From assembly GCA_039983935.1 (NCBI GenBank), contig JBDWVP010000055.1, forward strand, positions 5,048-69,047: DNA of 64,000 nt, given 5' to 3'. The position numbers and the translations under genes are program-made. Below are positions 1 through 43,645 of this stretch, piece by piece. Source of the stretch: Roseobacter sp. GTDB taxonomy: Bacteria > Pseudomonadota > Alphaproteobacteria > Rhodobacterales > Rhodobacteraceae. Under the pieces are notes generated by a model that was not told the origin of the DNA, made no database searches, and saw only the letters and a list, made by a program, of their open reading frames with translations. The stretch's first letter is position 1; the number at the start of each line of letters is the position of its first letter.

Positions 1-4
1 TAGT

Positions 5-3000
5 GTGAATGTGCAAACCGCCTGCTCGACATCGCTGGTTGCCACACATTACGCTTGTCAGGCGCTGATGACCGGGGAATGCGACACAGCCATTGCCGGC
101 GGGGTCACGGTCGAATTGCCCCAGAACCGTGGGTACATCTATAACGAGGGTGAGGTTCTCTCGCCTGATGGGCATTGCCATGCCTTTGATCATCGCGCCC
201 AAGGCACAGTTTTTGGCTCCGGTGCGGGGGCTGTGGTACTGCGTCGGCTGGAGGATGCCATCCGGGACGGCGACCACATCTGGGCCGTCATCAAGGGCAC
301 CGCGATCAACAATGATGGTGCTGCCAAGGCCGGTTATCTGGCCCCTTCCGTCGACGGGCAGGCCAGCGCCATCACCGAAGCGCAGCAGATGGCGAATGTG
401 ACCGCTGACACCGTTGATTATATAGAATGTCACGGCACGGGAACCTATCTTGGCGATCCGATCGAGGTCGCCGCCCTGACACAGGCGTTTTCCGAAACAA
501 CCCAAGAAACCGGGTTCTGCAAACTTGGGTCGGTCAAAACAAATATCGGGCATTTGGACACGGCCGCGGGTGTCGCCAGCATCATCAAGACCGCACTGTC
601 CTTGCATCACAAACAAATCCCGCCATCGTTGGGCTATGAAAAACCCAATCCGGCCATCGATTTTGAACACTCTCCTTTCCGGGTCAATGATAGTCTCAGC
701 GATTGGATCAGCCACAAAGGTCCCCGGCGCGCGGGCGTCAACTCGCTGGGTGTCGGGGGCACAAACGCCCATGCCGTACTGGAAGAGGCGCCCGAGCGCG
801 CCGCCTCAGACGCGCCGGAATGGCCATTCCAGCTGCTGACCATCTCGGGCCGTTCAAAAGCAGCTGTTGACGGGAATGCTGCCAATCTCGCCGCCCACTT
901 ACGCGCCCATCCGGATCAGAATTTAGCTGACGTTGCCTGGAGTTTGAAAGAAGGGCGTAAAGCCTTTGAACGGCGCCGGGTTGTGGTGGGTGAAACCGCT
1001 GCTGAGGCCGCCGCCCTTCTCGACGAAAACGATCCGCGCAAAGTCTTTAGCCATGTCGCTCTGGATCGCCCGGATCAGGTGTTCATGTTCCCCGGTGGGG
1101 GCGCACAATATGCGGGCATGGCGCGCGATCTCTACGAGACGGAGCCGGTCTTTGCTGAATGGATGGCGCGCGGGCTCGATATCCTTACGCCCAAACTTGA
1201 TTATGACATCCGCGCGCTCTGGCTGCCTGAACCCGGGCAGGAAGAAGCCGCGAATGCCGCACTACAAAAACCCTCGGTACAACTACCGCTGATCATGATC
1301 TGCGAATACGCGCTGGCCCAGCTTTGGATGAGCTGGGGTGTGCAACCGACGGCGCTTGTGGGCCACTCCATGGGCGAAAACACCGCCGCCTGTGTGGCGG
1401 GTGTGATGTCATTCGAAGACTGTATCGGGCTTGTGCACCTGCGCGGACAGCTCTTTGATACGGTCCCTGCTGGCGGCATGTTGTCCGTGTCCCTGTCCGC
1501 AGAAGATTTGACACCCTATTTGGGTGATGATCTGGATTTGGGTGCCGTGAATGCACCGTCTCTTTCTGTTGCAACCGGACCTCAGGCGGCTCTGGATCAG
1601 CTGGAAGCAAAGCTGAAGGCGGATGACATCGACTGTCAACGCATCCAAATCGACATTGCGGCGCATTCCCGCATGTTAGAGCCTATTTTAAAGGATTTTG
1701 GCGATTATCTGAAATCAATCACACTGAACCCACCACAGATCCCCTTCACCTCAAACCGCACCGGGCAGATGATCACCCCGGAACAGGCAACCAGCCCTGA
1801 TTATTGGGTAGAACACTTGCGCGGCACCGTCCATTTCGCGGAATGTATCGGCACATTGGCTGAAAAAAACCGCATCTTCATCGAGGTCGGACCGGGCCGG
1901 GCGATGGCAGCGCTGGCCGGGCAGCATCCAGCGGTTGAGGCCAATCAAGTCATCGATACCCTGCGCCACCCTGCATCTGATGCCGCAGATGACGCCTATT
2001 TTATGGCCATGCTGGGCCGCATCTGGGCGCTGGGGGGCACATTCGACTGGGCGCAATACTGGGGGGATGCCCGCCGCGTAAAAATCCCGCTGCCAACCTA
2101 TGCATTCCAAAAAAGCCCTTATTTCATCGAACCCGGTAAAACCGCATCCGAACCCGCCGAAAGCTGGCTGATGCGTGAAGAGGACACGGACCAATGGGGT
2201 TGGCGACCGGCGTGGCGTCCTGCCTATGCCGCCTGCGATATAGACGTCAGCGGCGATCTGTCCGGCATCGCGCGCGAAACATGGCTTGTCTTTGCGGATG
2301 AGGCCGGGCTGTGTGAACAGGTTAGCGCCAAACTGCGCGCCAGCGGGCACAAGGTTTTGACCGTGCGCGCCGGGGATACGTTTACCCGCGACGGCAAAGA
2401 GGATTATGTACTGTCGCCCGAACGCGGACGGGACAGTTATGATGCCTTGGTGGCTGATCTGGTTGCGCGCGAGATTTTACCCACGCGCATCCTGCATGGA
2501 TGGCTGGCCACCACGCGTGAAACCTTCCGTCCAGGGTCGAGCTTTTTCCACCGCAATCTTGAGCAAGGTTTCTTTAGCCTTCTGTTCTTGACCCAGGCAA
2601 TGGGTGACGAAGGATGGAGCCATCCCCTGCACATGACAGTGCTGAGTTCCGGCGCCGCCCAAGTCGCCCCCGGTGATCCCTTACCGCACCCTGAAAAAGC
2701 GACGCTGGCGGGACCTGCACGCGTTATTGGACGTGAATTCTCTAATATCACGGTCACCACGCTGGATCTCGACCTGCCGCAAACCACAAGCCGCAGCAAA
2801 CGTGCCCGGGTGGATGTGTCAGGTTTTGTTGCCCCGGTGTTGGAAGAAGTATTGGCCCCTCCGGTGACCCTCACGGCAGCGCTGCGCGGCCCTAAGCGTT
2901 TCGAATTGAATTATCGCGCACAACAACTGGCCCCCGTTGACGCCGTTGAAGCGATGTTGAAACCCGGTGGTGTCTATCTGATTACGGGCGGTTTTGGTGG

Positions 3001-5887
3001 CATTGGGCTGACATTGGCATGCCAGCTCATTGAAAAAACACAGGCCCGTATCGTTCTGGTTTCCCGCGCAACACTGCCGCCCAGATCAACATGGGACAAC
3101 CTGTTGGAAAACACCGCGCCGGGAGACCCGTTAGCGCGGCGCATCACAGCGGTGCGCAACCTGGAAGCCGCTGGTGGTGAGGTGCTGTGTCTTGCCGGTG
3201 ACGTGAGCAATGTCGAAGATATGCGCGACATGCGCGCCGAGATTGAAACGAAATTTGGCCCAGTGAACGGGGTGATCCATGCGGCTGGCGTCATTGAAGA
3301 CGGCCTTATTCAGACCAAAAGCATGACTGATATCGAAGATGTCTTTGCCCCGAAACTCCACGGCGTCAAAGTTCTCGAAGAGGTGTTTCCGGATGGCACG
3401 CTCGATTGGCTGGTGTTGTTTTCCTCAAGCTCCACCGCGACCGCCCCCGCCGGGCAGGTCGATTACGTTGCCGCCAACGAATACCTCAACGCCTATGCCA
3501 AATCCCGCTCAGACGGACAAACCAAGGTGCTCGCCGTAGGATGGGGCATCTGGGCAGATACCGGCATGGCTGCAGACGCCATGGCAGAACGAACAGGCAC
3601 ACAAACCCTTGCACCGATCCTGCCGGCAAACGTTCCCTTGTTGGATGAAAAGACATTTGACGCGGCAGGCAACCGGCTCTTTACGGCCAGCTATAACGTG
3701 GCAGACCGCTGGGTGTTAGACGATCACCGCACAGGTGCTGGAGATGCATTGATGCCCGGCACAGGGTATCTGGAACTTGCGGCCCAAGCCTTGGCCGCAC
3801 AGGGCGAGACGGCCGCCTTTGAAATCCGCGATCTGTATTTTTTACGCCCTCTGGCGGTTGGTGAAACCGAAACGCGCAGCGTACATCTGCGCCTGCCACG
3901 CAGCACAACCGGCTATGATATGGTGGTGGAAAGCGGCCCCGAGGATGCCCGTGAAATGAACGCACAGGCCAGCCTCGCGCTACTGCCGATGCCAAAACCT
4001 GCGCCACTTGATATTGCCGCCATCGCAGCACGCTGTGCAGCACCTAACGAGGCCGCTCCAGGGGATGCGCTGCAAAGCCCACAAGAGGTACATCTGCAGT
4101 TTGGGCCCCACTGGCGGGTCTTGCAAAAAACCGCTCTGGGTCAGGGCGAAGGCCTTGCTGAACTGGCTTTACCGCAAGTCGCTCAGGGCGACGCGACAAA
4201 CGGCTACCGGCTCCATCCCGGGCTGATGGATCTGGCCACAGGCTGGGCGATGCAGTTGATCGAGGGCTATGCAGCCAAACACCTGTGGGTGCCGGTATCT
4301 TATCGGTCCGTGCGCATCTACCGGGCGCTGCCGGATCGGGTCATCAGCTGGGTACGCAACGCGGGCGACAACCGTTCTGAGGGCGCGATCGCCAGCTTCG
4401 ATGTCACGATCGCCACCCCAGAGGGTGAAGTTTGCGTCGAAGTCACCGGCTTTTCGATCCGGCGCATGGAAAGCAGCGAAGGCTTTGCCATCGCCGCAGC
4501 ACCCTCATCAGAGAGTGGCACGGAAACAGACACCCCCCGTCCCTTGTCGCCCGCCGAAGAGCGGTTGCGTCACAATCTTTCACAGGGCATTCGCGCCGAA
4601 GAAGGCGGGGAGTTGTTCTTGCGGGCCCTCGCACTTGGGGCGCCACAGGTCATCATCACCTCCCAACCTCTCCCGGATTTGATCGCGCAGACCAGTAAAA
4701 CCGACGACGCAAGTGAAGGGGGCGGGCATACCTTTGAACGTCCCCAGCTGGACAGCGATTACGTCGAACCCGAGGGGGCGATTGAAACAACGCTTGCCGG
4801 GTTCTGGAGTGAGCTTTTAGGTGTCGACCAAATTGGAGCTGAGGATAGTTTCTTTGATTTGGGCGGGCATTCGCTGATTGCGGTGCGCCTCTTTGCGCAG
4901 ATCCGCAAAACCTACGCTGTGGATTTCCCCATTTCAGTCCTATTTGAGGCACCCACGATCCGTAAGGTTTCCGCGCTCATCGCTGAACGTGGCGGCAATA
5001 CAGCCGAAACAGACGACACCGGGGAACAAAGCAACACCGCGCGGAGCCAACCGGAACAACGCTTTACCCATCTGGTGCCGATGCACTCAGGTGAAGGGGG
5101 ACCCCTCACACCGTTCTTCCTTGTGGCAGGCATGTTCGGCAATGTCCTCAACCTGCGCCATCTCGCCCATCTTCTGGGCGCGGACCGGCCGTTTTATGGA
5201 TTGCAGGCGCGTGGGCTTTACGGCGACGCAGATCCGCATGACAACATCCCAGAAGCAGCACGTGACTACATCGCAGAAATGCGACAGGTACAGCCACATG
5301 GCCCCTATATGGTGGGAGGTTTTTCTGGTGGTGGCATCACCGCCTTTGAAATTGCCCGACAACTGCGCGAAGAGGGCGAAGAAATCTCAGCCGTCATCCT
5401 GCTCGACACGCCGTTACCGCAACGGCCTGCACTATCACGCCGGGATAGAGTCATGATCAACTGGCTCAACCTGCGCGATGAAGGGTTTGGTTATATCACA
5501 ACATGGGCGAAGAAACGTATCATGTGGGAACTCAAAAAGCGCCGGGGCGGTGCCATCGAAGATGAGGATGCCGGCCCGCAGTTTCATGATGCAGCAATTG
5601 AAGCGGCCTTCCTGCGGAGCGTTGCAGATTATCAAGTGGAATCATGGGATGGACCACTTACGCTCTTTCGTCCGCCATTACTTGCCCGTTGGGAGGTGGC
5701 TCCCGGCCGTCTCGTTGACAAGCACAAACATTATATGTTTGTCGATAATGATTGGACAAAATACGTGCCCAGCATCGACATCTTTGAGGTCCCGGGCGAT
5801 CATGACTCCATGGTACTCGAGCCAAACGTACGCGTTTTAGCCAACCGTATCAGACGAGTACTAGAGAAGGCTCCGGAAACCTCCTAA
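5..5887 (+). CDS. Type I polyketide synthase, 5'-truncated by the window edge; domains KS-AT-KR-DH-carrier-thioesterase
   Basis: The ORF is open to the window edge: the codon before nt 5 is in frame, and 'tag' at 1-3 is in another frame. KS motifs 'VQTACSTSL' (Cys codon nt 23-25), 'ECHGTGT' and 'NIGHLDTAAG'. AT 'GHSMGE' (~nt 1361). KR Rossmann 'YLITGGFGGIG' (~nt 2980) and 'VDYVAAN'. PS-DH 'LDDHRTGAGDALMPGTGYLE' (~nt 3720) lies after the KR. Carrier 'FFDLGGHSLIAV' (~nt 4850). Thioesterase 'GGFSGGG' (~nt 5315). Confidence 0.9.
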   Translation: MNVQTACSTSLVATHYACQALMTGECDTAIAGGVTVELPQNRGYIYNEGEVLSPDGHCHAFDHRAQGTVFGSGAGAVVLRRLEDAIRDGDHIWAVIKGTAINNDGAAKAGYLAPSVDGQASAITEAQQMANVTADTVDYIECHGTGTYLGDPIEVAALTQAFSETTQETGFCKLGSVKTNIGHLDTAAGVASIIKTALSLHHKQIPPSLGYEKPNPAIDFEHSPFRVNDSLSDWISHKGPRRAGVNSLGVGGTNAHAVLEEAPERAASDAPEWPFQLLTISGRSKAAVDGNAANLAAHLRAHPDQNLADVAWSLKEGRKAFERRRVVVGETAAEAAALLDENDPRKVFSHVALDRPDQVFMFPGGGAQYAGMARDLYETEPVFAEWMARGLDILTPKLDYDIRALWLPEPGQEEAANAALQKPSVQLPLIMICEYALAQLWMSWGVQPTALVGHSMGENTAACVAGVMSFEDCIGLVHLRGQLFDTVPAGGMLSVSLSAEDLTPYLGDDLDLGAVNAPSLSVATGPQAALDQLEAKLKADDIDCQRIQIDIAAHSRMLEPILKDFGDYLKSITLNPPQIPFTSNRTGQMITPEQATSPDYWVEHLRGTVHFAECIGTLAEKNRIFIEVGPGRAMAALAGQHPAVEANQVIDTLRHPASDAADDAYFMAMLGRIWALGGTFDWAQYWGDARRVKIPLPTYAFQKSPYFIEPGKTASEPAESWLMREEDTDQWGWRPAWRPAYAACDIDVSGDLSGIARETWLVFADEAGLCEQVSAKLRASGHKVLTVRAGDTFTRDGKEDYVLSPERGRDSYDALVADLVAREILPTRILHGWLATTRETFRPGSSFFHRNLEQGFFSLLFLTQAMGDEGWSHPLHMTVLSSGAAQVAPGDPLPHPEKATLAGPARVIGREFSNITVTTLDLDLPQTTSRSKRARVDVSGFVAPVLEEVLAPPVTLTAALRGPKRFELNYRAQQLAPVDAVEAMLKPGGVYLITGGFGGIGLTLACQLIEKTQARIVLVSRATLPPRSTWDNLLENTAPGDPLARRITAVRNLEAAGGEVLCLAGDVSNVEDMRDMRAEIETKFGPVNGVIHAAGVIEDGLIQTKSMTDIEDVFAPKLHGVKVLEEVFPDGTLDWLVLFSSSSTATAPAGQVDYVAANEYLNAYAKSRSDGQTKVLAVGWGIWADTGMAADAMAERTGTQTLAPILPANVPLLDEKTFDAAGNRLFTASYNVADRWVLDDHRTGAGDALMPGTGYLELAAQALAAQGETAAFEIRDLYFLRPLAVGETETRSVHLRLPRSTTGYDMVVESGPEDAREMNAQASLALLPMPKPAPLDIAAIAARCAAPNEAAPGDALQSPQEVHLQFGPHWRVLQKTALGQGEGLAELALPQVAQGDATNGYRLHPGLMDLATGWAMQLIEGYAAKHLWVPVSYRSVRIYRALPDRVISWVRNAGDNRSEGAIASFDVTIATPEGEVCVEVTGFSIRRMESSEGFAIAAAPSSESGTETDTPRPLSPAEERLRHNLSQGIRAEEGGELFLRALALGAPQVIITSQPLPDLIAQTSKTDDASEGGGHTFERPQLDSDYVEPEGAIETTLAGFWSELLGVDQIGAEDSFFDLGGHSLIAVRLFAQIRKTYAVDFPISVLFEAPTIRKVSALIAERGGNTAETDDTGEQSNTARSQPEQRFTHLVPMHSGEGGPLTPFFLVAGMFGNVLNLRHLAHLLGADRPFYGLQARGLYGDADPHDNIPEAARDYIAEMRQVQPHGPYMVGGFSGGGITAFEIARQLREEGEEISAVILLDTPLPQRPALSRRDRVMINWLNLRDEGFGYITTWAKKRIMWELKKRRGGAIEDEDAGPQFHDAAIEAAFLRSVADYQVESWDGPLTLFRPPLLARWEVAPGRLVDKHKHYMFVDNDWTKYVPSIDIFEVPGDHDSMVLEPNVRVLANRIRRVLEKAPETS

Positions 5888-5922
5888 CCAGAGCCAGAAT
5901 CACACTACAAGGACGCAACCGA

Positions 5923-6945
5923 ATGAGTACCTCCCCCTCCTCCTCTCCTTCAGGGCCTACGGTTCTAACCATCGTGCTGAATTACAAGACAGCAGAAATG
6001 ACGCTACAATCAGTACAAGCCGCGCGCACCGCCATGGAGAATATCTCTGGCGGGATCGTTGTTGTGGATAATGACAGCCAGGACGGCTCTTACGAAGCAA
6101 TCTTGGCACATGTTACGCAAGAAGGCTGGGACAAAGAAGATGCCGTTCGGGTCGTTCAAGCCGGACGCAATGGCGGGTTCGGCGCTGGGAACAATGTAGG
6201 CATCAAAGCCGGCCTTCCAGATGGGTCTATACCTGATTACATCTATGTCCTGAACTCAGACGCCTTTCCCGCACCAGATGCGATCCGCAAATTGCTGGAG
6301 CACCTGGAAGCAAACCCAAAATCTGGTTTCGCTGGCAGCTATATCCATGGCCCCGAAGGGGATAGACAACAATCCGCCTTTCGATTTCCCTCCATTATGA
6401 GCGAATTCGAAGGATCAGTTCGCCTTGGCGTGCTCACCACTCTGTTAAAAAACCACCGTGTCCCAATGGAGATTCCGACGCAAACCGGGCCCGTAAACTG
6501 GGTCGCAGGCGCCAGCATGTTAATGCGGCAAAGTGTACTTAACCAAATTGGCTTATTTGATGAAACGTTCTTTCTTTACTTTGAAGAAGTGGATCTGTGC
6601 CGCCGTGCAGGGCAAGCAGGGTACAGCACCGATTACGTACCAGCCAGTAAAGTCACGCATATTGGGTCTGTCTCCACTGGCATGAAAGAATGGAAGCGCG
6701 TGCCCTCCTACTGGTATGATAGCCGCTGGCATTATTTCTCCAAGAACCATGGTGCCTTTTACGCCATGACGGCAACTATGGCTCACCTTTGCGGTGGTTT
6801 CCTACACGCATTGCGCTGTCTGATCTTAAGACGCGACCGCCATGTCACACCTGGCTTTCTTAAGACAATGGTTACACATGACTTCCGCGCTCTTATTAGG
6901 CGCCCTACGTCCTCCCCCTTAAAGGAAAGCCAAAGCAGTATTTAA
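5923..6945 (+). CDS. Family 2 glycosyltransferase (rhamnosyltransferase-like GT-A fold)
   Basis: 'TVLTIVLNYKTAEMTLQSV...VVVDNDSQDGS' N-terminal GT2 signature, and 'YVLNSDAF' as the DxD-like region. It starts 36 nt after the PKS stop on the same strand. Confidence 0.8.
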   Translation: MSTSPSSSPSGPTVLTIVLNYKTAEMTLQSVQAARTAMENISGGIVVVDNDSQDGSYEAILAHVTQEGWDKEDAVRVVQAGRNGGFGAGNNVGIKAGLPDGSIPDYIYVLNSDAFPAPDAIRKLLEHLEANPKSGFAGSYIHGPEGDRQQSAFRFPSIMSEFEGSVRLGVLTTLLKNHRVPMEIPTQTGPVNWVAGASMLMRQSVLNQIGLFDETFFLYFEEVDLCRRAGQAGYSTDYVPASKVTHIGSVSTGMKEWKRVPSYWYDSRWHYFSKNHGAFYAMTATMAHLCGGFLHALRCLILRRDRHVTPGFLKTMVTHDFRALIRRPTSSPLKESQSSI

Positions 6946-7159
6946 GTAATCTGGAAAGCGGCATATCGAAGCGCGGTTTTATTGTTTGTTGAGCTAATCA
7001 AAGTCAAAATGCATAATAAAAGAGCCTCAAAACAGTCGAAAAATCTCTAAAATGGCCGGCAGAAGGCGGGCTACCACCCTAAAAAGGTAAATATTTTCAA
7101 CTTTTAATAGCACAGTGTTATAAACAAAAAATAGTAAGTATCATAGGTTCGGATTTTGT

Positions 7160-10100
7160 ATGTCCCACTTCAGTTCAGTCATCATCGGCAATGAAAGTCT
7201 CGCTATCCAATGCGGGGAAATACTGCTGGAGGGTGGGCATGCTATCGTCGCCGTCGTCACGCGCAACGATGATGTGAAAACCTGGGCCGTCGGGCGGAAT
7301 TTGCAGGTGGAACCCCCCGGCGCAGGGCTCGCGGATCGGCTGGCGGGGATATCTTTTGACTGGCTTTTATCGATTGCCAATCTTGATATCATTCCCCGCG
7401 CCATACTGGAGATGCCCACGCGGGGGGCGGTGAATTTCCATGACGGCCCACTGCCTGACTATGCCGGGCTCAACGCCCCGATCTGGGCGGCGCTGGCCGG
7501 TGAAAACGAACACGGGATCAGCTGGCATTTCATCGAAGGCGGTGTTGATGAAGGCGACGTGATCGCCAGCGCGCGGTTCTCTGTCTCGGACAGCGACACG
7601 GCACTGACCCTTAATACCAAATGCTATGCTGCAGCCATCGACAGCTTTGCGCAGGTGATGTCGGAACTGGCGTCGCCCTCTCCAGCCCGTACTCCCCAGG
7701 ATTTATCCCAGCGCAGTTATTTCGCCCGCGATGACCGGCCAGACGGCGGCGCACGGCTTGATTTTCAACGCCCTGCCGCGGATCTCGCACGGATTGTGCG
7801 CGCCCTTGATCATGGTGATTATTGGAACCCTTTAAGCGTCCCCAAATTTGAAGCCGGGGGGAAACTCTGGCTCGCGCGCGCCGCACATTTGGCCACCGGG
7901 GCCTCCGGTGCGGCTCCAGGTGCTGTCTGTGCGGCGGATGAAACGATCCTGACTGTTGCAACAGGGACAGGGGATCTGGTGATAACCCAGATCACCGATT
8001 GCAACGGACATCCCGCACGCCCGCAAGACATTACACGGGTTGGCGCGATCCTACCCTGCCCACAGGCTGCCGATCTGACAGAACTGACCGCAGCATTGGC
8101 ACCGCTGGCCGCCAATGATCCCAAGTGGCGCGCAACACTGGAAGGGATGAAGCCCGCAGATCTGCCGCTGATCAACAGCTCCGAAGGTGCGCCGCATCCT
8201 ATCGCGCGCCCAATCCCATTGCCAAATGGGATGGATCTCGCCCGCGCCCGTGCGGCCTTTGCGCTTTTGGCGATGCGGCTTTCAGCCACGGGCAATGCGA
8301 ATATTGCGCTGCATATACCTGCTTCTCCGGGCAAGGTCGCCCCCTACATCGCGGATTGGGCCCCTCTCATCCCTCAGCCAGAAGACAGTTTTACGACACT
8401 GGCAGCAACACTAGAAAGCAGCATGCAGGACGTGCGCATACGTGGTCCTTTTGCCGCTGACCTGATCGCGCGCCTGGCTGGTGCAGATGCGCCACCGCTG
8501 CCCCAATTGGGACTCTCAGAAGACCCAGAAGCGGGGCTCATCGGCCCCAGCGCACTGACCTTTGCCCTCAGCGCAGGGAATGCCACGCTTTTGGCGGATC
8601 AGGCCCGTGTTAGTGACACAACCCTTGATCTATATGCGGCCCGGCTGTCCCATCTGCTCGCGCATTTGGAGGCAAGCGATGAGCCCGCCGCCCTAGACAT
8701 TCTGCCCGATGCAGAGCGTCAGCGCGTGGTCAGCGACTGGAATGCGACCGGGAAAGAATACGACCCTGAACTCTGTGTCCATCAGGCTTTTGAGGCGCAG
8801 GTGGCCCGCACCCCTGAGGCTGAGGCTCTCGCCGTTGAAGGCCAAAGCCTGACATATGCGGAACTGAATGCCGCCGCCAATCGCATGGCACACAGGCTCA
8901 CAGCACTCGGGGTCTCCCCCGATACGATTGTTGGATTGCACCTGCCACGCTCAGTCGAACTGGTGGTCGCAGCGCTCGCCATTCTCAAAGCGGGCGGCGC
9001 TTACCTCCCGATGGACCCCGCCTACCCCGCCGATCGCACAGCGCTTTACATTGAGGACAGTCATGCAGCGGTGATTGTAACCAATGCCGAGCTTGCCGCC
9101 AGCATCCCCCAAGGCAACGCACGGATACTCGACATCGCCGAGGATCTCTCCGCGCTCCCGGAGGACAACATCGACAGTGGCGTTGCGGGGCATCATCTGG
9201 CCTATATGATCTATACCTCCGGCTCGACCGGGCGTCCCAAAGGGGTCATGGTTGAGCACCGCAATGTTGCGAATTTCTTTGCCGGTATGGATGATCGGAT
9301 CGATCATACCAGCGGGTCAGTCTGGCTCGCGGTAACCTCGCTTTCCTTTGACATTTCAGTTCTTGAGCTGTTCTGGACACTCGCACGTGGCTTCAAGCTG
9401 GTGCTGTCCGGGGATGAAAGCCGCACACTCGTTTCTGGCGAGGGGGGCGGTAGCACGGGCGGCATGGAATTCAGTCTCTATTACTGGGGAAATGATGACG
9501 GTGTGGGCCGCGATAAATATCGCTCGCTGCTGGAGGGGGCGAAGTTCGCAGACGAAAATGGCTTCTGCGCTGTTTGGACACCGGAGCGACATTTCCATGC
9601 CTTTGGCGGTCCCTATCCCAATCCATCCGTCACAGGGGCGGCCGTGGCCGGGTTCACAAAGAATATCGGTGTGCGCGCAGGGTCCTGCGTCGCCCCGCTA
9701 CACCATACCGCGCGCATTGCCGAGGAATGGTCTGTCATCGACAATTTGACAAACGGACGCGCAGGCCTTGCTATTGCGTCCGGCTGGCAGCCTGACGATT
9801 TTGTCTTGCGCCCGGAAAACACCCCCCCCGAAAACAAGCCTGCCATGTTCCGCCAGATCGCGGATTTGCGCAAGCTTTGGGCCGGGGAACCTGTGGAATT
9901 CCCCCGCAAAGACGGGCAGATGCACGCGGTGATCACGCAACCCCGGCCGATTTCTGCCGCGCCCGATCTATGGGTCACAACCGCTGGCAATCCCGAGACG
10001 TGGAAAGAGGCAGGGCGCAATGGCTGTCATGTACTGACCCATCTCTTGGGTCAGTCGGTCAGCGAGGTCGCAGACAAAATCAAGCTCTACCATGAGGCTT

Positions 10101-11833
10101 TGCGCGGTGCTGGGCACGACCCTGCGCAATTCAAGGTCACGCTGATGTTGCACAGTTTCCTGGCACAGACCCGCGATCAGGCCCGCGAAATCGCCCGTGA
10201 ACCGATGAAGGACTACCTGCGATCTGCTGCCGGTCTCATCAAGCAATACGCCTGGGCCTTTCCTGCGTTCAAGAAACCCGAAGGCGTGGACAACGCCTAT
10301 CAACTGGATCTTGGAAGCCTCACGGAAGAAGAACTGGAAGGCATCTTGGACTTTGCCTTTGAACGGTATTTCAACGACAGCGGGCTCTTTGGCACCATAG
10401 AAGACGCAATGGCGCGGGTTGAAGGGGTCAAGGCCATCGGCGTGACCGAAATCGCCTGCCTGATTGATTATGGCATTCAGGTGGATACGATCCTCGAGGG
10501 GCTGCGCCCGCTGGCCGAGGTCGTACGTCTTGCCAATCAAGGGGCCGGACCGGCAGAGGACGATTATTCCATCGCGGCGCAAATCACCCGCCATGGTGTA
10601 ACCCACCTGCAATGCACCCCCTCTATGGCCCGGATGCTGGTCATGAGCGACGAAGCAGGTGCCGCGCTGAAATCAGTCAAACACCTGATGGTAGGGGGCG
10701 AAGCCCTGCCCGGCGCACTGGTGCAAGATTTGAACGCACTGACGGATGCGCATATCGAAAACATGTACGGGCCGACCGAAACCACAATATGGTCCACCAC
10801 CCAAACCGCACAGGCTGGTGTTGGCGTGGTCAGCATCGGCACGCCTATCGCAAATACACAAACCTATGTGCTGGATGAAAATCTGCAGCCCCTGCCCATT
10901 GGTGTGGCCGGTGAACTCTTCATCGGCGGTGACGGGGTGACCCGAGGGTATTGGGAACGCCCGGAATTGACCGACGAACGTTTTATCCACGATCCTTTCT
11001 CTGATCGAGACGGCGCGAAGCTGTACCGCACGGGCGATCTGACACGCTGGATGCCGGATGGCACAGTGGAATTTCTGGGCCGCGCTGATTTTCAGGTCAA
11101 ATTACGGGGCTATCGGATCGAGCTGGGCGAGATTGAGACGGCCATTGACGGTTTTGATGCTGTGCGCCAATCCGTAGTCGTCGCGCGCGAAGATCAACCT
11201 GGCGTGCAACAACTCGTGGCCTACTTGCTCACCGATGGGCCCGTGCAAGAAAGCGATTTGAAAACGGCGCTCACCGCACATTTGCCAACACATATGATCC
11301 CGGCGCGGTTTGTAACGCTTGACGCTTTCCCGCTGACGCCCAACAAAAAAGTAGATCGCAACGCGCTGCCTATACCACCTGCGCCGCGCCCCGCCGCGCC
11401 AGTTAAGGCCCCGACGACAACTGCACCGACGCTCCAAACAGGCGTTCCAGCAGCACAGAATGGTGCCGCACCTGCCGATGTAAGTGCACAAATTTCTGCC
11501 ATCTGGACACGCATTCTTGGGGTCACCGGCATCACTGCACAGGATAATTTCTTTGATCTGGGGGGGCATTCCCTACTTGCCGTGCAAGCGCATCGCGAAA
11601 TCAGGTCAGAACTCGGAGCCACGAAACTATCGATCATCGACATTTTCCGCCATCCAGTTCTGGCAGATTTGTCCGCCGCCGTCAGTGCGAAACTAGGCAC
11701 ATCTGCCCCAGCTCCAGCCACGCTGACTTCCCCCCCAGCGCCGCAAAATTCCCCCACCGCCAATACCCGGGCAGATGCCATGGCCCGCCGTCGTGAAATG
11801 CGGGCACGCCGTGGTCAACAGACCGCCAAATGA
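7160..11833 (+). CDS. Single-module NRPS: formyltransferase-like domain, unassigned region, adenylation domain interrupted by a luciferase-like monooxygenase domain, PCP
   Basis: Formyltransferase-like motifs 'VNFHDGPLPDYAGLNAP' and 'GVDEGDV' (~nt 7160-8060), followed by ~230 aa unassigned. Adenylation motifs 'LAYMIYTSGSTGRPKGV' (~nt 9197) and 'SFDIS'. A luciferase-like monooxygenase insert ('MEFSLYYWG...FCAVWTPERHF', ~nt 9464-10530) sits before 'NMYGPTETT' (~nt 10759), 'GELFIGGDGVTRGYW', 'YRTGDL', 'LRGYRIELGEIE' and 'PNKKVDR'. PCP 'FFDLGGHSLLAV' (~nt 11549). The stop overlaps the next start (ATGA). Confidence 0.9.
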   Translation: MSHFSSVIIGNESLAIQCGEILLEGGHAIVAVVTRNDDVKTWAVGRNLQVEPPGAGLADRLAGISFDWLLSIANLDIIPRAILEMPTRGAVNFHDGPLPDYAGLNAPIWAALAGENEHGISWHFIEGGVDEGDVIASARFSVSDSDTALTLNTKCYAAAIDSFAQVMSELASPSPARTPQDLSQRSYFARDDRPDGGARLDFQRPAADLARIVRALDHGDYWNPLSVPKFEAGGKLWLARAAHLATGASGAAPGAVCAADETILTVATGTGDLVITQITDCNGHPARPQDITRVGAILPCPQAADLTELTAALAPLAANDPKWRATLEGMKPADLPLINSSEGAPHPIARPIPLPNGMDLARARAAFALLAMRLSATGNANIALHIPASPGKVAPYIADWAPLIPQPEDSFTTLAATLESSMQDVRIRGPFAADLIARLAGADAPPLPQLGLSEDPEAGLIGPSALTFALSAGNATLLADQARVSDTTLDLYAARLSHLLAHLEASDEPAALDILPDAERQRVVSDWNATGKEYDPELCVHQAFEAQVARTPEAEALAVEGQSLTYAELNAAANRMAHRLTALGVSPDTIVGLHLPRSVELVVAALAILKAGGAYLPMDPAYPADRTALYIEDSHAAVIVTNAELAASIPQGNARILDIAEDLSALPEDNIDSGVAGHHLAYMIYTSGSTGRPKGVMVEHRNVANFFAGMDDRIDHTSGSVWLAVTSLSFDISVLELFWTLARGFKLVLSGDESRTLVSGEGGGSTGGMEFSLYYWGNDDGVGRDKYRSLLEGAKFADENGFCAVWTPERHFHAFGGPYPNPSVTGAAVAGFTKNIGVRAGSCVAPLHHTARIAEEWSVIDNLTNGRAGLAIASGWQPDDFVLRPENTPPENKPAMFRQIADLRKLWAGEPVEFPRKDGQMHAVITQPRPISAAPDLWVTTAGNPETWKEAGRNGCHVLTHLLGQSVSEVADKIKLYHEALRGAGHDPAQFKVTLMLHSFLAQTRDQAREIAREPMKDYLRSAAGLIKQYAWAFPAFKKPEGVDNAYQLDLGSLTEEELEGILDFAFERYFNDSGLFGTIEDAMARVEGVKAIGVTEIACLIDYGIQVDTILEGLRPLAEVVRLANQGAGPAEDDYSIAAQITRHGVTHLQCTPSMARMLVMSDEAGAALKSVKHLMVGGEALPGALVQDLNALTDAHIENMYGPTETTIWSTTQTAQAGVGVVSIGTPIANTQTYVLDENLQPLPIGVAGELFIGGDGVTRGYWERPELTDERFIHDPFSDRDGAKLYRTGDLTRWMPDGTVEFLGRADFQVKLRGYRIELGEIETAIDGFDAVRQSVVVAREDQPGVQQLVAYLLTDGPVQESDLKTALTAHLPTHMIPARFVTLDAFPLTPNKKVDRNALPIPPAPRPAAPVKAPTTTAPTLQTGVPAAQNGAAPADVSAQISAIWTRILGVTGITAQDNFFDLGGHSLLAVQAHREIRSELGATKLSIIDIFRHPVLADLSAAVSAKLGTSAPAPATLTSPPAPQNSPTANTRADAMARRREMRARRGQQTAK

Positions 11834-12555
11834 GTGACCCGTTGGTGCTGGAAAAGATTTTGCGCCAATCACTGAGGAAGTCACTGGGGACCCATGTCGG
11901 GGTGGGCGTAACAGATCCACAACACCCCGCCCCACCGCTCTGGCCCGCGGAGGAGCCAGCAACAATACGAATGATCGATAAGCGCCGCCGCGAATTTGCG
12001 GCGGGACGCGCGGCTGCGCGCGCTGCCATGGCAGATCTGGGCCTGTCGCCCGCCGCCATTCCCATGAACCCGGATCGCGCGCCGCGTTGGCCAGACGGGC
12101 TGTGTGGTTCGCTCTCTCATTGTGCCACAGCAGCCGTTGCAATCGTTGCGCGTTGTGAAGACACGCCCAGTCTGGGTATCGACATCGAAGAAGATACCGA
12201 CCTGCCCCCTGATTTATGGCCCGACATCCTGACAGCCCGCGAACACGATTGGCTGATGGCACAGGTACCATCATCCAGAGGGCACCACGCCAAGTCGATC
12301 TTTACCGCCAAAGAAGCGGTTCACAAACTGCATTACCCATTAAGCGGACAGGTATTGGGATTTGACGACGTCACAATCACACTCGCCCCTCATAGTTTCT
12401 GGACGCAGCTGCCAATTGGCGTGCCCGGTTTACCCGAGATGATCTATGGGCACATCTTTCGAGCAGAAAACCTGCTCATAACGGCCATCACAGGCACACA
12501 AAAACCCGCGCAACAAGCCGGTACAATGCGCGAATATAAGGCTTCTCTTACATAA
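11830..12555 (+). CDS. 4'-phosphopantetheinyl transferase (Sfp/EntD type)
   Basis: 'SLSHC', 'LGIDIEE' and 'FTAKEAVHKL' match the PPTase core motifs. It is translationally coupled to the NRPS. Confidence 0.8.
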   Translation: MSDPLVLEKILRQSLRKSLGTHVGVGVTDPQHPAPPLWPAEEPATIRMIDKRRREFAAGRAAARAAMADLGLSPAAIPMNPDRAPRWPDGLCGSLSHCATAAVAIVARCEDTPSLGIDIEEDTDLPPDLWPDILTAREHDWLMAQVPSSRGHHAKSIFTAKEAVHKLHYPLSGQVLGFDDVTITLAPHSFWTQLPIGVPGLPEMIYGHIFRAENLLITAITGTQKPAQQAGTMREYKASLT

Positions 12556-12723
12556 AATCGTCTTCCACCTATGTTCAATTACACCACAGGGGTGGCAGGT
12601 GACGGCTGAAAAAAGAGTTGCAGAAAAGATCATTCACAGAGACGGTAAGGCAATGGAAAAGAGCCCTTATGGAATCGCAGACACTCAAACTTTTTCTACA
12701 TTTACCGGACCTGCTTTAGGATC

Positions 12724-13671
12724 ATGACATTCTGTCGTCTCAAACGAAAATCCGTTGCTATCCTTCTGCTCTTGGTGTCGGCATGTGGCATGACTACACG
12801 CTGCGGCGGCCCCCCCGAACCGCTCGATAAAGCCGCCTTTAACGCTCTTTACACGACACCTCTTGCACCACCAGACAAGGGGCTCAACACGTATCATCTC
12901 GGGCACAGCCTTGTTGGACACACCATCCCTGTGATGCTGCAACAGCTTGCCGGTGAAGACCACAGGTTTTCAAGCCAGCTCGGCTCAGGAACCAATCTGC
13001 GGGCCCACTGGGAACCAGATATCGCGATCAAACACTTCGAGGAGACAAATAGGCATCCTCAATATCGTGACCCTCATGAGGCGCTCGCCTCCGGAACTTA
13101 TGATGCGCTGATCGTGACCGAGACCGTCGAAATTCGGGACAGCATCAAATATCACGATTCACAGGGGTATTTGCGTAAATGGGCCAGCAAAACCTGGTCA
13201 AACAACCCTGAAACACGGGTCTACCTTTATGAAACCTGGCATAAACTTGATGACGAGGAAGGTTGGCTGGCACGGCTCGATCGCGATTTGGATCAGTACT
13301 GGGAAGGTGAAATTCTGCGCCGCACCCTCGCACATGATGACATAAACCAGACCATTTATGTCATCCCAGGTGGTCAGGTGATGGCCGCCTTTGCTCGCAA
13401 AATAGATGCCGCAGGCGGTATCGGAACGCTCTCAAGCCACAAGGATCTTTTTTCGGATCACATTCATTTCAACGACTTTGGAGCTTATCTGATGGCGTTG
13501 ACACACTATGCTGTCCTCTATAGTCGCTCTCCTGTGGGGCTCCCATATGCCCTGTTGCAACCTGATGGCAGCCCTGCAGAAAACCCTGGACCAGTGCTTG
13601 CGCGAGCGATGCAGGAAACAGTTTGGGACGTTGTGACTAACTATTCACCAAGCGGTGTATCAGGCGATTGA
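12724..13671 (+). CDS. Predicted lipoprotein of unknown function (weak SGNH/GDSL-like signatures)
   Basis: Signal peptide with lipobox 'LLLVSAC'. 'HLGHSL' near the N-terminus and 'SDHIHFN' near the C-terminus resemble SGNH blocks I and V. I recognised no firm family. Confidence 0.5.
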   Translation: MTFCRLKRKSVAILLLLVSACGMTTRCGGPPEPLDKAAFNALYTTPLAPPDKGLNTYHLGHSLVGHTIPVMLQQLAGEDHRFSSQLGSGTNLRAHWEPDIAIKHFEETNRHPQYRDPHEALASGTYDALIVTETVEIRDSIKYHDSQGYLRKWASKTWSNNPETRVYLYETWHKLDDEEGWLARLDRDLDQYWEGEILRRTLAHDDINQTIYVIPGGQVMAAFARKIDAAGGIGTLSSHKDLFSDHIHFNDFGAYLMALTHYAVLYSRSPVGLPYALLQPDGSPAENPGPVLARAMQETVWDVVTNYSPSGVSGD

Positions 13672-15020
13672 GCGGCAAGCTCAGCGCGGCCTTCAACAGA
13701 GATTTCAATCACCCGTTCGAAGGCGTCACCGCTGTACCAGAAAACAAATGCAGCACATAGCACCGCAAGTACGGCAAAAGTAATGTCATGCAAAGGGTCC
13801 GCCCCCCGGTAAGGGCGGATCAACCAGACCAGAAACGGATAGATCAGAAGCGCTGCGAGCGGTTGCGCGCCCATAGCACCTATCAGACCGAATTTCATCA
13901 TGCCGACAGCTAACAATGTAATCTGCAAGGTCGCGCGGCAGATCTGAAAGTACATATATACATTAGATTTCCCAACAGCCAGCAACAGGTTGGGATAGGA
14001 TTGAATAATCAAGCTGGGCATCAGGAAGACGGCCAAAAGTACAAGAATAGGGCCCGAGTCCCGGTACTCCTCCGTATAAAGGAAATCGATCAACCACTGC
14101 CCCATGAGCGCCAACACAAAAAGCAGCACAAACATTCCCCCCGTCAGCGCAAAGCGCGTTTTGGAAATCGCACGTCTGTTGGGAGCAGACTGAGCCGGGG
14201 GCCGGGCACTGTAAAGTGGAAAGATCACCCGGTTCATGAGCTGCCCCATGAGCGTCATCGGAACAGAAGCGAAAAAGAACGCAATATTGTAAAAACCCAA
14301 GTAAGCAAGACTGATAAATTTCGAAAGCAGAAGCCGATCGCCATTCTCGATGACAAAGGTCAGCCCAGAACTGACAAAGAGGTATTTTCCAAAATGAAAC
14401 TGTTCATGAACCGCCGCGCGTTCAAACTGCAATCTGTTAGGATGGCCCGGTAAGATTAGGTGGGACAAGACCGTCTTGGACAGGTTCGCCACGATCATCC
14501 CGATCATCAACGCCCAAACCGACTCCCATATCAGCGCCAGAACAATCATCGTAATAATCATCAGCACCTGAGACCCCATATCCATGAGCGTCAGGCGTCC
14601 CATGAGGATCTTCTTATTCGCCGTCGCGATACGGGTTGAACGTAAACCCATCAGAAATACCGAAAATCCGATCCCATACATCAGTTCATGCAGGATTGGC
14701 TCCCCGTAGAACTGCGCAACAGGCCCGGCCACGATACAACAAATCACCGCCAAAAGCGTGTGGCGGATAATCTGCAACGTCCAGGCTGTGTTGAGAAATA
14801 CCGGTTCATCGCCCCGTTTTGACCGCACGATGCAGGTTGCTAAACCGATATCCGAAACCATCTGGATGCCCGTCATAAGCACGGTGACGATCGTCATTAA
14901 ACCGAAGGCCTCAGGGAACAAAAGGCGTGTAAGAATGAGGTTTGACCCAAGCCGCATAAGCTGGCTGAGACCAAAACCCACAAAAGTCAGGGCCGAGCCA
15001 CGGATAACCCGTGCGCCCAT
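13641..15020 (-). CDS. Polysaccharide flippase (Wzx / PST-family, multi-TM)
   Basis: 'MGARVIRGSALTFVGFGLSQLMRLGSNLILTRLLFPEAFGL' is a typical Polysacc_synt N-terminus, and the whole protein is hydrophobic. ATG at 15020 is preferred; the ORF track starts at a GTG at 15059. Confidence 0.75.
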   Translation of the reverse strand: MGARVIRGSALTFVGFGLSQLMRLGSNLILTRLLFPEAFGLMTIVTVLMTGIQMVSDIGLATCIVRSKRGDEPVFLNTAWTLQIIRHTLLAVICCIVAGPVAQFYGEPILHELMYGIGFSVFLMGLRSTRIATANKKILMGRLTLMDMGSQVLMIITMIVLALIWESVWALMIGMIVANLSKTVLSHLILPGHPNRLQFERAAVHEQFHFGKYLFVSSGLTFVIENGDRLLLSKFISLAYLGFYNIAFFFASVPMTLMGQLMNRVIFPLYSARPPAQSAPNRRAISKTRFALTGGMFVLLFVLALMGQWLIDFLYTEEYRDSGPILVLLAVFLMPSLIIQSYPNLLLAVGKSNVYMYFQICRATLQITLLAVGMMKFGLIGAMGAQPLAALLIYPFLVWLIRPYRGADPLHDITFAVLAVLCAAFVFWYSGDAFERVIEISVEGRAELAAQSPDTPLGE

Positions 15021-15086
15021 TCCGTCGCCCGAAAGTTTCGCTTGAATAGCGCTCAGCACAGCGCGCGCCTGGTTCGAAGGTACATT

Positions 15087-16262
15087 TTAATCCGCCCCGA
15101 AAAGATCGCGGGTGAAGACTTTCTCCACGACGTCCTCAAGATCTGGTGTGTGGCGGTTGGCAACGATCACTTCCGCATTGGCTTTCAGGTCCTCAAGATC
15201 ATGCGTGACCCGGCTGCCGAAAAAGTCCGGCGCGTCTAATTCCGGCTCATAAACCAGCACCTCAATCCCCTTGGCCTTTAGCCGCTTCATAATACCTTGT
15301 ACCGAAGACTGGCGGAAATTGTCCGAACCCGCCTTCATCACCAACCGATAAATTCCGACCACACGCGGGTTCTTTGCCCAGATTTGATCTGCGATGAAAT
15401 CTTTGCGCGTGCGATTGGCGTCTACAATGGCCTGCATCAGGTTTTGCGGCACCGCCTGATAGTTGGACAAAAGCTGTTTGGTATCTTTGGGCAGACAATA
15501 TCCCCCATAGCCAAAGGATGGATTGTTATAGTGATCCCCGATCCGTGGGTCCAAACCAATGCCATTGATAATGTTGCGACTGTCCATGCCGTTTACCAGC
15601 GCATAGCTGTCGAGCTCATTAAAGAACGCCACGCGCATGGCCAGATAGGTATTGGCAAATAGCTTGATCGCTTCGGCCTCGGCGGAAGAGGTGAACAGCG
15701 TATCAATATCCTGCTTGACCGCGGCCTCTTGCAAAAGCCCTGCAAAGACACGGGCGCGGTCGCTGTCTTCGCCAATGATGATACGCGAGGGATGCAGGTT
15801 GTCATAAAGCGCGCGCCCTTCGCGCAGAAACTCTGGGCTAAAGATCACCTGATCCGTTTTTAATTCCGCGCGGATTTTATCCGTAAACCCAACTGGGATC
15901 GTCGATTTGATGACAATCGTGGCCTTTGGGTTGACCGCAATCACCTGAGAAATCACCGCTTCGACAGAAGCCGTATTAAAGAAATGCGTCTGTGCATCGT
16001 AATCGGTCGGCGTCGCCACAATCACAAAGTCAGCATCGCGATATGCCTCTTGTGGGGAAGTGGTTGCGGTGAGATTGGGCAAAACATCCGTAAGGATGGA
16101 TTCTACATCAGGATCAATGATCGGGCTTTGACCTGCATTGAGCAGGGCGACACGTTCAGCATCGATATCAACAGCCGTCACCTTGTTCTTCTGCGCCAGC
16201 AGCACAGCCATGGACAAGCCGACATAGCCAATGCCTGCCACCGCAATCGTTACTTCGGTCAT
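15087..16262 (-). CDS. ugd: UDP-glucose 6-dehydrogenase
   Basis: '[18 protein letters not shown]' Rossmann motif and catalytic '[12 protein letters not shown]'. The internal ATG at 16262 is chosen because the longer ORF (to 16322) would overlap manC. Confidence 0.9.
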
Positions 16263-16275
16263 GGAAGTTTTACCT

Positions 16276-17703
16276 TTAGTTGCGCGCGTAGACGTCTTCG
16301 TAGCGAATGATGTCATCCTCACCCAGATACGATCCTGTCTGCACCTCGATTAATACCATGTCTACTTTGCCCGGATTTTCCATCCGATGAACAGCCCCCA
16401 GAGGGATATAAACCGACTGATTTTCACTCACCAGCGTGACATCTTCATCTACTGTTACCTTTGCCGTTCCCTGCACCACGATCCAGTGTTCAGAGCGGTG
16501 ATGGTGGCTTTGAAGGCTGAGAGAAGCGCCAGGGTGCACCACAATGCGTTTTACCTGAAAGCGGTTGCCGATCACGAGACTTTCAAACCAGCCCCAAGGA
16601 CGGTGATCAATAGGGAACGCAGTGGCTTGTTTGGCGCCCTTTTCCTTGAGCGCGGCCACAGCTTCCTTGACCCGTTGTGTATCGGATTTATGTGCCACCA
16701 AAACCGCATCCGGCATGGCCACAGCGATCATATCTTCCAAACCAATGCCGACCAGCTCCAGCCCCTTGGCCTCGCTGCGTAACAATGTGTTGCGACAATC
16801 AATGGCAGTCGCCTCATCAGAAGTTACATTCCCCGCATCATCCGGGCCGCTTTCAAGCCATACAGCTTCCCAGCCCCCCAGATCAGACCAATCCCCGGTA
16901 TAGGGCATAACCGCAAGGTTATCCGCCTTTTCCATGATCGCGTAATCAATTGAAATATCGGCCAATTCAGACCACGGTTCAGCAGCCAGACGGGTAAAAC
17001 CCAAATCCAAGGATGCCCCTGTCACCGCGGCGCGCGCGCCCGCCATCAGTTCAGGAGTGTGATTGGCATAGGCCTCAAGAATGGCGCGGACAGAGAACAG
17101 AAAAATACCAGCGTTCCACAGGAAATTCCCCGCTGCGAGCATTTCAGCCGCACGGGTCGCATCTGGTTTTTCGACAAAGCGCGCCAAAGGCTGTGGTGCC
17201 GTGGCGCTTGCATCCGCATCTGGCGCCAGTTCCAGATACCCATAGCCGGATTCAGGTCGGGTCGGGGCAATGCCAAAAGTGACCAGCGCGCCAGCCTGTG
17301 CACGGGGCAGCGCAGCCTCAATCGCAGTCCGGAATGCTTCCTCGTCCGGGATCACATGGTCTGACGGGGCAACCAACATGACGGCCTCGGGATCGTTTTC
17401 AGCCAGCCAGAGGGCTGCCGCCAGTACCGCAGGGGCCGTGTTGCGCCCTTCGGGTTCGATCAGAATAGTTTGTGCTTGTTTTTCGATCCCGGCAAGTTGC
17501 TCGGACACGATAAAGCGAAAATCTTCCCCTGTGACGATCAAAGGGGCTGCAAAGTTTTCACCCGATAGCCGCTGAACCGAGCCTTGAAAGAGGCTCATAT
17601 CCCCGATCAGAGGGGAGAATTGCTTGGGGTAAGATTTCCGCGACAAAGGCCAAAGCCGGGTCCCAGATCCGCCACACAAAAGCACCGGATGCAATACTGC
17701 CAT
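16276..17703 (-). CDS. manC: Bifunctional mannose-1-phosphate guanylyltransferase / mannose-6-phosphate isomerase (type II PMI-GMP)
   Basis: '[23 protein letters not shown]' N-terminus, and a C-terminal cupin '[21 protein letters not shown]'. Confidence 0.9.
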
Positions 17704-17806
17704 TAAAAATCACCTCTCTTTAATTGACGCATCCTTGCAGACAGCGCCACCCGGATATTCTCACGTTTATTGCACCCAAAATAAGGGAGCAAGGCGGGAG
17801 TATCAC

Positions 17807-18613: not shown

Positions 18614-18652
18614 ATCAAATCAATCCTTACTATGCGCTAAAGAAGCAGCGCA

Positions 18653-20191: not shown

Positions 20192-20192
20192 A

Positions 20193-21077: not shown

Positions 21078-21388
21078 AACACACTCTCACACTTACACAG
21101 GGCGAACCAACTCGCACAGACACTTGCAAATCTGCTTCTTACACAACCGCACATCGGTTTCATGCATATAGTAGCTGAACGTTTTCTTAAAACAGTTAAA
21201 AAACGGCAGAAGCAAAAATTTTAGCTTTTTATCCGACATTTGCGTGACTATTTGCGCCGGGTTACAAACTATGCGCCAAGGCGATTGCAGAAAAGAAGAC
21301 GCGGCATTATACGCCAAAAGCAGTCGTTTTTATACTTTGGTGACATATATCACCGCGCCGCACATGTTTACATGAAGGAAATATCCGG

Positions 21389-22339: not shown

Positions 22340-22473
22340 TCATCCACCTACCCGTGTCAAATAAAGAACAATCTTCAAGTAAATAACGGCATTGAGCTTT
22401 TTGATGGTTTTCAGATAGGGGCGACGGCCTCTACAAGAAGATCAACAATCGCCATCAAGAGTTCCATTGCGCT

Positions 22474-24436: not shown

Positions 24437-24466
24437 TTTCATTGAAGAAGAAGGACTGACGCCCTG

Positions 24467-32079: not shown

Positions 32080-32142
32080 GTAGCCCTCATGTGACGTCTT
32101 TTTATTAAGATACCTGAAAACACGGTATATGCAAGAAAACAC

Positions 32143-43587: not shown

Positions 43588-43645
43588 TGATCCTTTGGGA
43601 TAAACCCGCCGTGCCAACTCGATTTTCGTAACAAAGGGATGTTTT

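Follow-up and report, generated by a model that had tools for sequence, protein, structure and literature searches.

An NRPS gene in a conserved four-gene cluster

The DNA analysed here, referred to as the window, is a stretch of 64,000 nucleotides from a Roseobacter sp. genome (assembly GCA_039983935.1, contig JBDWVP010000055.1). It contains an open reading frame (ORF) for a non-ribosomal peptide synthetase (NRPS) of 1557 aa (7160..11833, + strand), for which the ATG start is backed by homologues aligning from residue 1. This protein, P0001, is encoded among four adjacent genes on the + strand, the others specifying a type I polyketide synthase (PKS), a family 2 glycosyltransferase (GT2) and a phosphopantetheinyl transferase (PPTase). 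The PPTase start overlaps the NRPS stop by 4 nt, and the PKS starts at G000:C55:4548, 500 nt before the window. PMC4337385, which cites Martens et al., describes an NRPS/PKS/glycosyltransferase/PPTase cluster with an uncharacterised product that is conserved across the Roseobacter lineage, being present in 28 of 57 genomes. The same four genes are adjacent here, nothing material differs, and two NRPS homologues come from Ruegeria strains of that study (ANG-R, 74% identity; ANG-S4, 61%). A hybrid 'NRPS-like/T1PKS' cluster with matching gene sizes was listed, with no product, for 18 of 37 species (PMC10584327). Judged by gene content and sequence similarity, the P0001 gene belongs to this previously reported cluster; in the accessible open-access literature, its architecture and product appeared only as the genome-mining mentions of these two papers, and PMC4062626, PMC4359443, PMC8273931, PMC10127204, PMC9396620 and PMC13291983 gave no further information about it.

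P0001 is a single module of the layout F-C*-A(MOx)-PCP, in which F is a formyltransferase domain, C* is the region discussed below, A(MOx) is an adenylation (A) domain carrying a monooxygenase and PCP is a peptidyl carrier domain (Table 1). Pfam identified Formyl_trans_N (residues 65-158), Formyl_trans_C (198-291), AMP-binding in two stretches (the first at 544-753), Bac_luciferase (780-1096), AMP-binding_C (1324-1397) and PP-binding (1444-1508), and the NCBIfam amino-acid adenylation model TIGR01733 scored 443 against a cut-off of 317. Neither a Condensation nor a Thioesterase match was obtained in the Pfam scan of the whole protein. These results agree exactly with the ORF bounds and domain description of a first-pass annotation made from the sequence alone, including a PCP and no thioesterase (TE); its statement that there is no condensation (C) domain holds for a complete domain only, as half of one is present. 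A chance origin of the domain set can be excluded on comparative grounds because more than 120 clusters of full-length homologues (90% identity) share the full Pfam set with P0001 at 57-79% identity. Residue conservation was assessed in 128 family members, comprising P0001, all 119 other proteins among the homologues listed and eight distant proteins, with none dropped. The GGHS serine of the carrier domain was kept in 127 of them.

Table 1. Coordinates of the cluster genes and of the domains of P0001 (window numbering)
Feature	Position	Residues	Strand	Basis
Type I PKS, KS-AT-KR-DH-ACP-TE	2..5887		+	Pfam, genome position
Family 2 glycosyltransferase (GT2)	5923..6945		+	Pfam Glycos_transf_2
P0001 formyltransferase domain (F), catalytic N-terminal and Fmt-type C-terminal subdomains	7160..8056	1-299	+	Pfam, PDB matches, AF2 superposition
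P0001 C* region, predicted condensation C-terminal lobe and C-A linker	8057..8764	~300-535	+	AF2, Foldseek, VIA
P0001 adenylation domain, N-terminal part, through FDxS motif	8765..9439	~536-760	+	Pfam AMP-binding; alignment to both LgrA A domains
P0001 embedded luciferase-like FMN monooxygenase (MOx)	9464..10558	769-1133	+	TIGR04020; 6ket alignment
P0001 adenylation domain, C-terminal part, NxYGPTE motif to A10 lysine	10559..11389	~1134-1410	+	Pfam; alignment to second LgrA A domain
P0001 peptidyl carrier domain with GGHS serine	11489..11683	1444-1508	+	Pfam PP-binding
P0001 C-terminal tail, Pro/Ala-rich then basic, and stop codon	11684..11833		+	Translation
Sfp/EntD-type phosphopantetheinyl transferase (PPTase)	11830..12555		+	Pfam 4PPT_N and ACPS
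Lipoprotein-like ORF, possible accessory gene	12724..13671		+	Weak DUF4886 match

A two-subdomain formyltransferase at the N-terminus

Residues 1-300 matched ArnA (E 5.7e-19) and Escherichia coli Fmt (E 1.4e-18) among PDB sequences, while the match to the F domain of LgrA was distant (E 1.7e-6, residues 66-163). An AlphaFold2 (AF2) model of residues 1-560, built from 31 sequences (predicted local distance difference test score, pLDDT, 92.8; predicted template modelling score, pTM, 0.86), superposed on ArnA through residues 4-298 (Z 27.9, root-mean-square deviation 2.7 Å, 286 aligned) and also on Fmt (Z 26.8, 291 aligned). Because the superposition extends across the whole domain in both cases, the model indicates that F is a complete two-subdomain formyltransferase of the Fmt/ArnA type. 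In the PDB sequence alignments the catalytic NxH of Fmt and ArnA falls opposite N92 and H94, and their catalytic Asp opposite D130; all three residues of P0001 were kept in 128 of 128 members. The first-pass annotation had recognised an Fmt-like domain here and had considered that it might fail on modelling; the fold and the aligned, conserved Asn, His and Asp residues uphold the recognition. The F domain stands at the N-terminus of an A-PCP module in P0001, as it does in the fused relatives described below, and its predicted function is the formylation of a carrier-bound amino acid with formyl-tetrahydrofolate.

ArnA was the best match by both sequence and structure, a GT2 gene is a conserved neighbour and polysaccharide genes surround the cluster in this genome, so that F could instead act in trans on an amino sugar, in the manner of ArnA, and serve the GT2 and polysaccharide genes. 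Fmt matches the domain equally well, however, the GT2 had no ArnC-type match in the NCBIfam scan, and F is always fused in front of C*-A-PCP, including in loci L028-L030, where no GT2 hit lies nearby, and in multimodular NRPSs. Amino-sugar formylation was considered highly improbable and was rejected on account of this constant fusion and of the equal match to Fmt.

Half of a condensation domain lies between F and A

The first-pass annotation could assign no motif to about 230 aa following F and offered a degenerate condensation-like or a docking region. The absence of an assignable family is real, since residues 296-545 searched alone gave no Pfam match even at E 10. Searched against 1.84 billion representatives, the same residues gave 347 matches at E ≤ 0.001, of which 150 were listed and approximately 21, as read from the table, spanned the whole region. 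Among the matches listed, those spanning the region sat only at around residues 300-550 of proteins of about 1500 aa, or in fragments of them, and the last 50-100 residues matched repeatedly within giant NRPSs, a pattern expected for the closing part of a C domain with its C-A linker.

The fold of residues 296-545 was recognised only via structure prediction. The AF2 model (34 sequences; pLDDT 93.6, pTM 0.88) gave 128 PDB matches at E ≤ 0.001 in Foldseek, and those listed were nearly all NRPS condensation-type domains (C, starter C, glycopeptide X) or modules containing one, with Txo1 as the best match (E 2e-10, TMq 0.71). VIA-align superposed 197-243 residues on C domains (Z 15.2-16.9), with chain ranges that reach their C-terminal end (for example 71..431 of the 428-residue RzmA starter C domain). 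HHxxxDG was not found in P0001, and HHxxxD was missing from the C* region in 127 of 128 members. Because the structural matches run to the ends of C domains and the HHxxxDG motif is missing, the model identifies C* as a C-A linker preceded by the C-terminal lobe of a condensation domain whose HHxxxDG half is gone. A condensation domain has both lobes and HHxxxDG, and only about 200-240 residues superpose here; the formyltransferase has replaced the catalytic half. Of the two earlier suggestions, the condensation-like one was thus borne out by AF2, Foldseek and VIA. P0242 (1561 aa) was the sole member with an HHxxxD string in the C* region and, by this sequence trait, may retain more of the condensation domain.

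The C* region separates P0001 from LgrA (F-A-T; PDB 5es5, 6mfz). The two proteins share an N-terminal formyltransferase placed before A-PCP, but the A domain of LgrA starts at approximately residue 206, with no C-lobe between F and A, while P0001 has a full Fmt/ArnA-type F domain of two subdomains (E ~1e-18), the C-lobe and an A domain bearing a monooxygenase.

A glycine-type adenylation domain split by a monooxygenase

A luciferase-like monooxygenase (LLM) is inserted between the FDxS and NxYGPTE motifs of the A domain. In P0001, 420 residues separate the positions equated with GrsA 235 and 278, against some 43 in an uninterrupted A domain. The insert (residues 769-1133) lies between the two AMP-binding stretches, as the first-pass annotation had read it. 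TIGR04020 (MupA/Atu3671 LLM) matched residues 771-1121 at 461.3 bits (cut-off 244.45), and the insert aligned end to end with the monooxygenase domain of PuwE (6ket; E 9e-97, query 2-357 to chain 6-350 of 362). Rather than an unrelated TIM barrel, which had been named as a possible outcome, the alignments identify a complete LLM, closest to an assembly-line alpha-hydroxylase domain. The PuwE domain has been proposed to help make the 3-amino-2-hydroxy acyl unit of puwainaphycin (PMC4219810).

The C-terminal part of the A domain aligned with the second A domain of LgrA at 205 bits. The ten specificity positions, taken from the motif register in GrsA numbering and checked against the alignments to LgrA, read DILQMGMIWK. 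This code was present in 114 of the 128 members; six had DILQLGMIWK, one had DILQLGLIWK, five had near-variants and two had divergent codes. All four MOX-bearing Gly domains in the data set of PMC12283262 carry DILQLGMIWK, to which the P0001 code is identical at nine of ten positions. Read in this register the code is fully glycine-type, which overturns the earlier impression that only its first positions resemble those for glycine.

The terminal modules MtaG and MelG of myxothiazol and melithiazol are described as C-A-MOX-A-T-TE (PMC11411415). The first-pass annotation had pointed to this type, and the likeness stands as regards the split A domain; a glycine-type code and an expected alpha-hydroxylation of an N-acylglycyl thioester are also common to them and P0001. 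P0001 differs in having only the C-lobe, a formyltransferase in front, no TE and a starter position, and is not classed as an MtaG-type terminal module because a functional C domain and a TE are missing. A terminal role, with the PKS product joined to glycine and released as a primary amide, could draw on the gene order PKS, GT2, NRPS together with the MtaG-type split domain. It was rejected as extremely unlikely for want of a complete C domain and of a TE on P0001: the catalytic C half is missing, with HHxxxD absent in all but one of the members, the PKS has its own TE, and the fused relatives place this module first.

A further relative is the Gly module SolF of solanimycin, into which a flavin monooxygenase is embedded (PMC10204066). 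Its monooxygenase-bearing glycine A domain is like that of P0001, but the module serves elongation, has a working C domain and lacks an F domain, and alpha-hydroxyglycine is retained in its product.

Distribution and fused relatives

Named Rhodobacteraceae homologues aligned with P0001 at 57-79% identity across 97-100% of its length, and the top 120 homologues retained the same Pfam set. Homologues were named from Primorskyibacter, Ruegeria, Tateyamaria, Yoonia, Loktanella, Thalassovita, Nioella, Sulfitobacter and Hydrogenophaga, and more distant members from Erythrobacter, Sandaracinus and a Polyangiales metagenome-assembled genome. None of the close homologues has a known function; the first-pass annotation had allowed for a known, ordinary one. 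Residues 1-545 were also compared with 200 further genomes of the family, each from a different genus; 67 had a match at E ≤ 1e-20 (57 of 178 when good-quality genomes were counted, own genome included). Most matches (61 of 69) lay in open frames of 1433-1877 aa, spread over 59 genomes. The combination of features, which the first-pass annotation had called unusual, is therefore so only beside characterised systems and not among genomes, given its presence in 59 of the 200 and the orphan cluster already described in PMC4337385.

For gene order, 14 of the 69 places were fetched (the four best matches, six from contigs of 1.4-4.2 Mb and four divergent ones) and compared by tblastn with the proteins of the window. 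PKS, GT2 and NRPS occurred in that order in 11 loci, a PPTase followed the NRPS in 10, and a Wzx-like gene lay beside the PKS in four. In the three most divergent loci the NRPS was directly upstream of the PKS on the same strand, with no GT2 hit. Homologues of the ORF at 12724-13671 followed the PPTase in four loci, with two tandem copies in three.

Fused relatives were sought by comparing residues 1-545 with proteins of 2726-5000 aa, of which seven matched at E ≤ 1e-10. P0291 (2986 aa, from a metagenomic contig) has the layout F-C*-A(MOx)-PCP-C-A-PCP-TE and 33% identity over all 545 residues. P0293 and P0295 carry F-A-PCP fused upstream of KS-AT (KS, ketosynthase). A partial protein named as a Photorhabdus bodei NRPS, P0290, shares the F-C* head (29% identity over residues 5-545); it differs from P0001 in having several C-A-T modules after the head and no LLM in its precomputed Pfam list, and is presumably a kolossin-type synthetase. 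Since the head is shared with P0291 and P0290, sequence comparison indicates that F-C* represents a broader class of formylating initiation unit that differs from that of LgrA. The expected product of P0291 is a formyl-(hydroxy)glycyl dipeptide, and this protein may lend itself more readily to biochemical work.

A predicted initiation module for the neighbouring PKS

Directly observed were the domain identities, the conservation of catalytic residues, the glycine-type code, the gene order and the fused relatives. On these grounds P0001 is probably, though with modest confidence, an initiation module that would make N-formyl-alpha-hydroxyglycyl-S-PCP and hand it to the PKS, which begins with a KS. 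A starter role is suggested by the absence of a working C domain and of a TE from P0001 together with a PKS that opens directly with KS, by the fused relatives P0291, P0293 and P0295, in which the F-headed module comes first, and by the three most divergent loci with the NRPS immediately upstream of the PKS.

For the chemistry we infer the individual steps, their order and the product as follows. The PPTase encoded immediately downstream would prime the PCP, and the split A domain would activate glycine and load it onto the PCP. Formylation of the glycyl amine by the Fmt/ArnA-type domain, with N10-formyl-tetrahydrofolate as donor, would follow; the C-lobe that remains would keep the interface with the A domain and the place of entry of the carrier arm, with the formyltransferase sitting at the former donor-side half. 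Next, the embedded FMN-dependent LLM would hydroxylate the alpha-carbon of the N-formylglycyl thioester, and the product would pass to the adjacent PKS, which lacks a loading domain, at its KS. There the chain would be extended with malonate, reduced, dehydrated and released through the TE of the PKS, after which the GT2 may glycosylate it. Precedents exist for the parts. Alpha-hydroxylation of an N-acylglycyl thioester by the split domain is the accepted proposal for MtaG and MelG (PMC11411415), and SolF hydroxylates the glycine alpha-carbon with the same kind of split domain, the alpha-hydroxyglycine persisting in solanimycin B (PMC10204066). Conglobatin, oxazolomycin and rhizopodin each start from an F-A(Gly)-PCP loading module that feeds a PKS (PMC4504003), and these loaders resemble the proposed role of P0001 in that a formylating module loads glycine and hands it to a KS.

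Several points weigh against this assignment. As a hemiaminal, N-formyl-alpha-hydroxyglycine may not persist unchanged. The order PKS, GT2, NRPS, found here and in 10 other loci, is not colinear with a flow from NRPS to PKS. The conserved core of the cluster showed no flavin reductase gene, and the cluster product is uncharacterised according to PMC4337385. The code register was derived from GrsA numbering and motif positions, not from NRPSpredictor. The second A domain of LgrA, which we take to be a Gly module, differs from P0001 at several of the ten positions.

The possible instability of the hemiaminal leads to a reading in which the formyl group leaves no trace: the hemiaminal collapses, formamide departs and the glyoxylyl-S-PCP left behind serves as a 2-oxoacetyl starter for the PKS. 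This was judged unlikely, though the most probable of the alternatives. In the MtaG/MelG case, hydroxylation of the N-acylglycyl unit is followed by dealkylation, which gives the amide and leaves on the carrier an alpha-keto acid that the TE later removes (PMC11411415). Formyl is the smallest possible N-acyl group, and the retained C-lobe suggests descent from a C-A-MOX-A-T module. Collapse is not automatic, however, because solanimycin B retains alpha-hydroxyglycine (PMC10204066), and the ordinary C domain that follows the module in the dimodular P0291 fits retention and collapse alike. The corresponding proposal, that the module is a dedicated generator of glyoxylyl thioester in which glycine is formylated only so that an MtaG-type hydroxylase will accept it, is judged equally unlikely. 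If it were true, the PKS would be primed with an aldehyde-bearing two-carbon starter, and F with half a condensation domain would constitute a distinct type of initiation domain. We know of no assembly line for which glyoxylyl starter-unit chemistry has been described.

It is somewhat less probable again that only one of the tailoring domains works, giving either a plain formylglycine starter with a silent MOx or a hydroxylated glycine with F as a scaffold. Loaders of the F-A(Gly)-PCP type without a MOx do exist, in the systems of PMC4504003 and in P0290, P0293 and P0295. Against this, the triad of F is invariant in the family, the LLM aligns over its entire length with an assembly-line enzyme and the Pfam set is kept in all of the top 120 homologues; no CongE/OzmP-like cyclodehydratase was seen among the conserved neighbours, the genome not having been searched for one.

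The PKS and the genomic surroundings

The Cys and His motifs of the KS are visible in the PKS translation. Pfam placed the DH domain of the PKS after the KR, an order presumably closer to that of PfaA-type iterative synthases than to that of modular PKSs. Because of this resemblance the PKS might act more than once and yield a longer chain.

The contig of 80 kb that holds the NRPS-PKS cluster looks like a RepA-type plasmid, since it has a RepA/ParAB replication module: ParB-like (29654-30643, - strand), ParA-like (30691-32142, - strand) and Replication initiator protein A (32533-33534, + strand; PF10134, E 5e-96). Six of the loci examined have the related cluster on contigs of 1.4-4.2 Mb. Most 2-kb bins of the PKS-NRPS stretch (window 1-12000) had a G+C content of 0.58-0.61, the bin at 6001-8000 being lower at 0.53, against mostly 0.51-0.55 elsewhere in the window; the contrast could reflect foreign origin or simply the composition of megasynthase genes. 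Four RNA sequencing runs under the same species label yielded 0 aligned reads at window 5500-13800, a result that speaks neither for nor against expression.

A large polysaccharide locus surrounds the cluster (window 13641-25723 and 34503-63954; L004 1019-2653). It encodes an exosortase EpsH fused to DUF3485, a Wzx-like flippase, UDP-glucose dehydrogenase, ManC, Wzz/GNVR and a Wza-like exporter, with rmlCBDA-like genes at 42973-46397 and several GT1, GT2 and GT4 genes. A sulfotransferase and ATP sulfurylase/APS kinase are also present, which suggests a sulfated polymer. An ORF of 1165 aa at 26029-29526 has RTX calcium-binding repeats near its C-terminus.

Significance for roseobacters

Roseobacters are among the most abundant cultivable marine bacteria, and about half of the early genomes have the four-gene cluster (PMC4337385). 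No established view is overturned by the assignment of P0001 as a probable initiation module; it would supply concrete, testable chemistry for an orphan cluster of this group. The spacer in such formylating starter modules is a leftover half C domain, which matters for the annotation and engineering of NRPSs. For chemists, the domain-level reading suggests what to look for in the product: label from glycine, traces of a formyl group or formamide, a single oxygen at the alpha-carbon of glycine, at least one malonate unit and, perhaps, a sugar.

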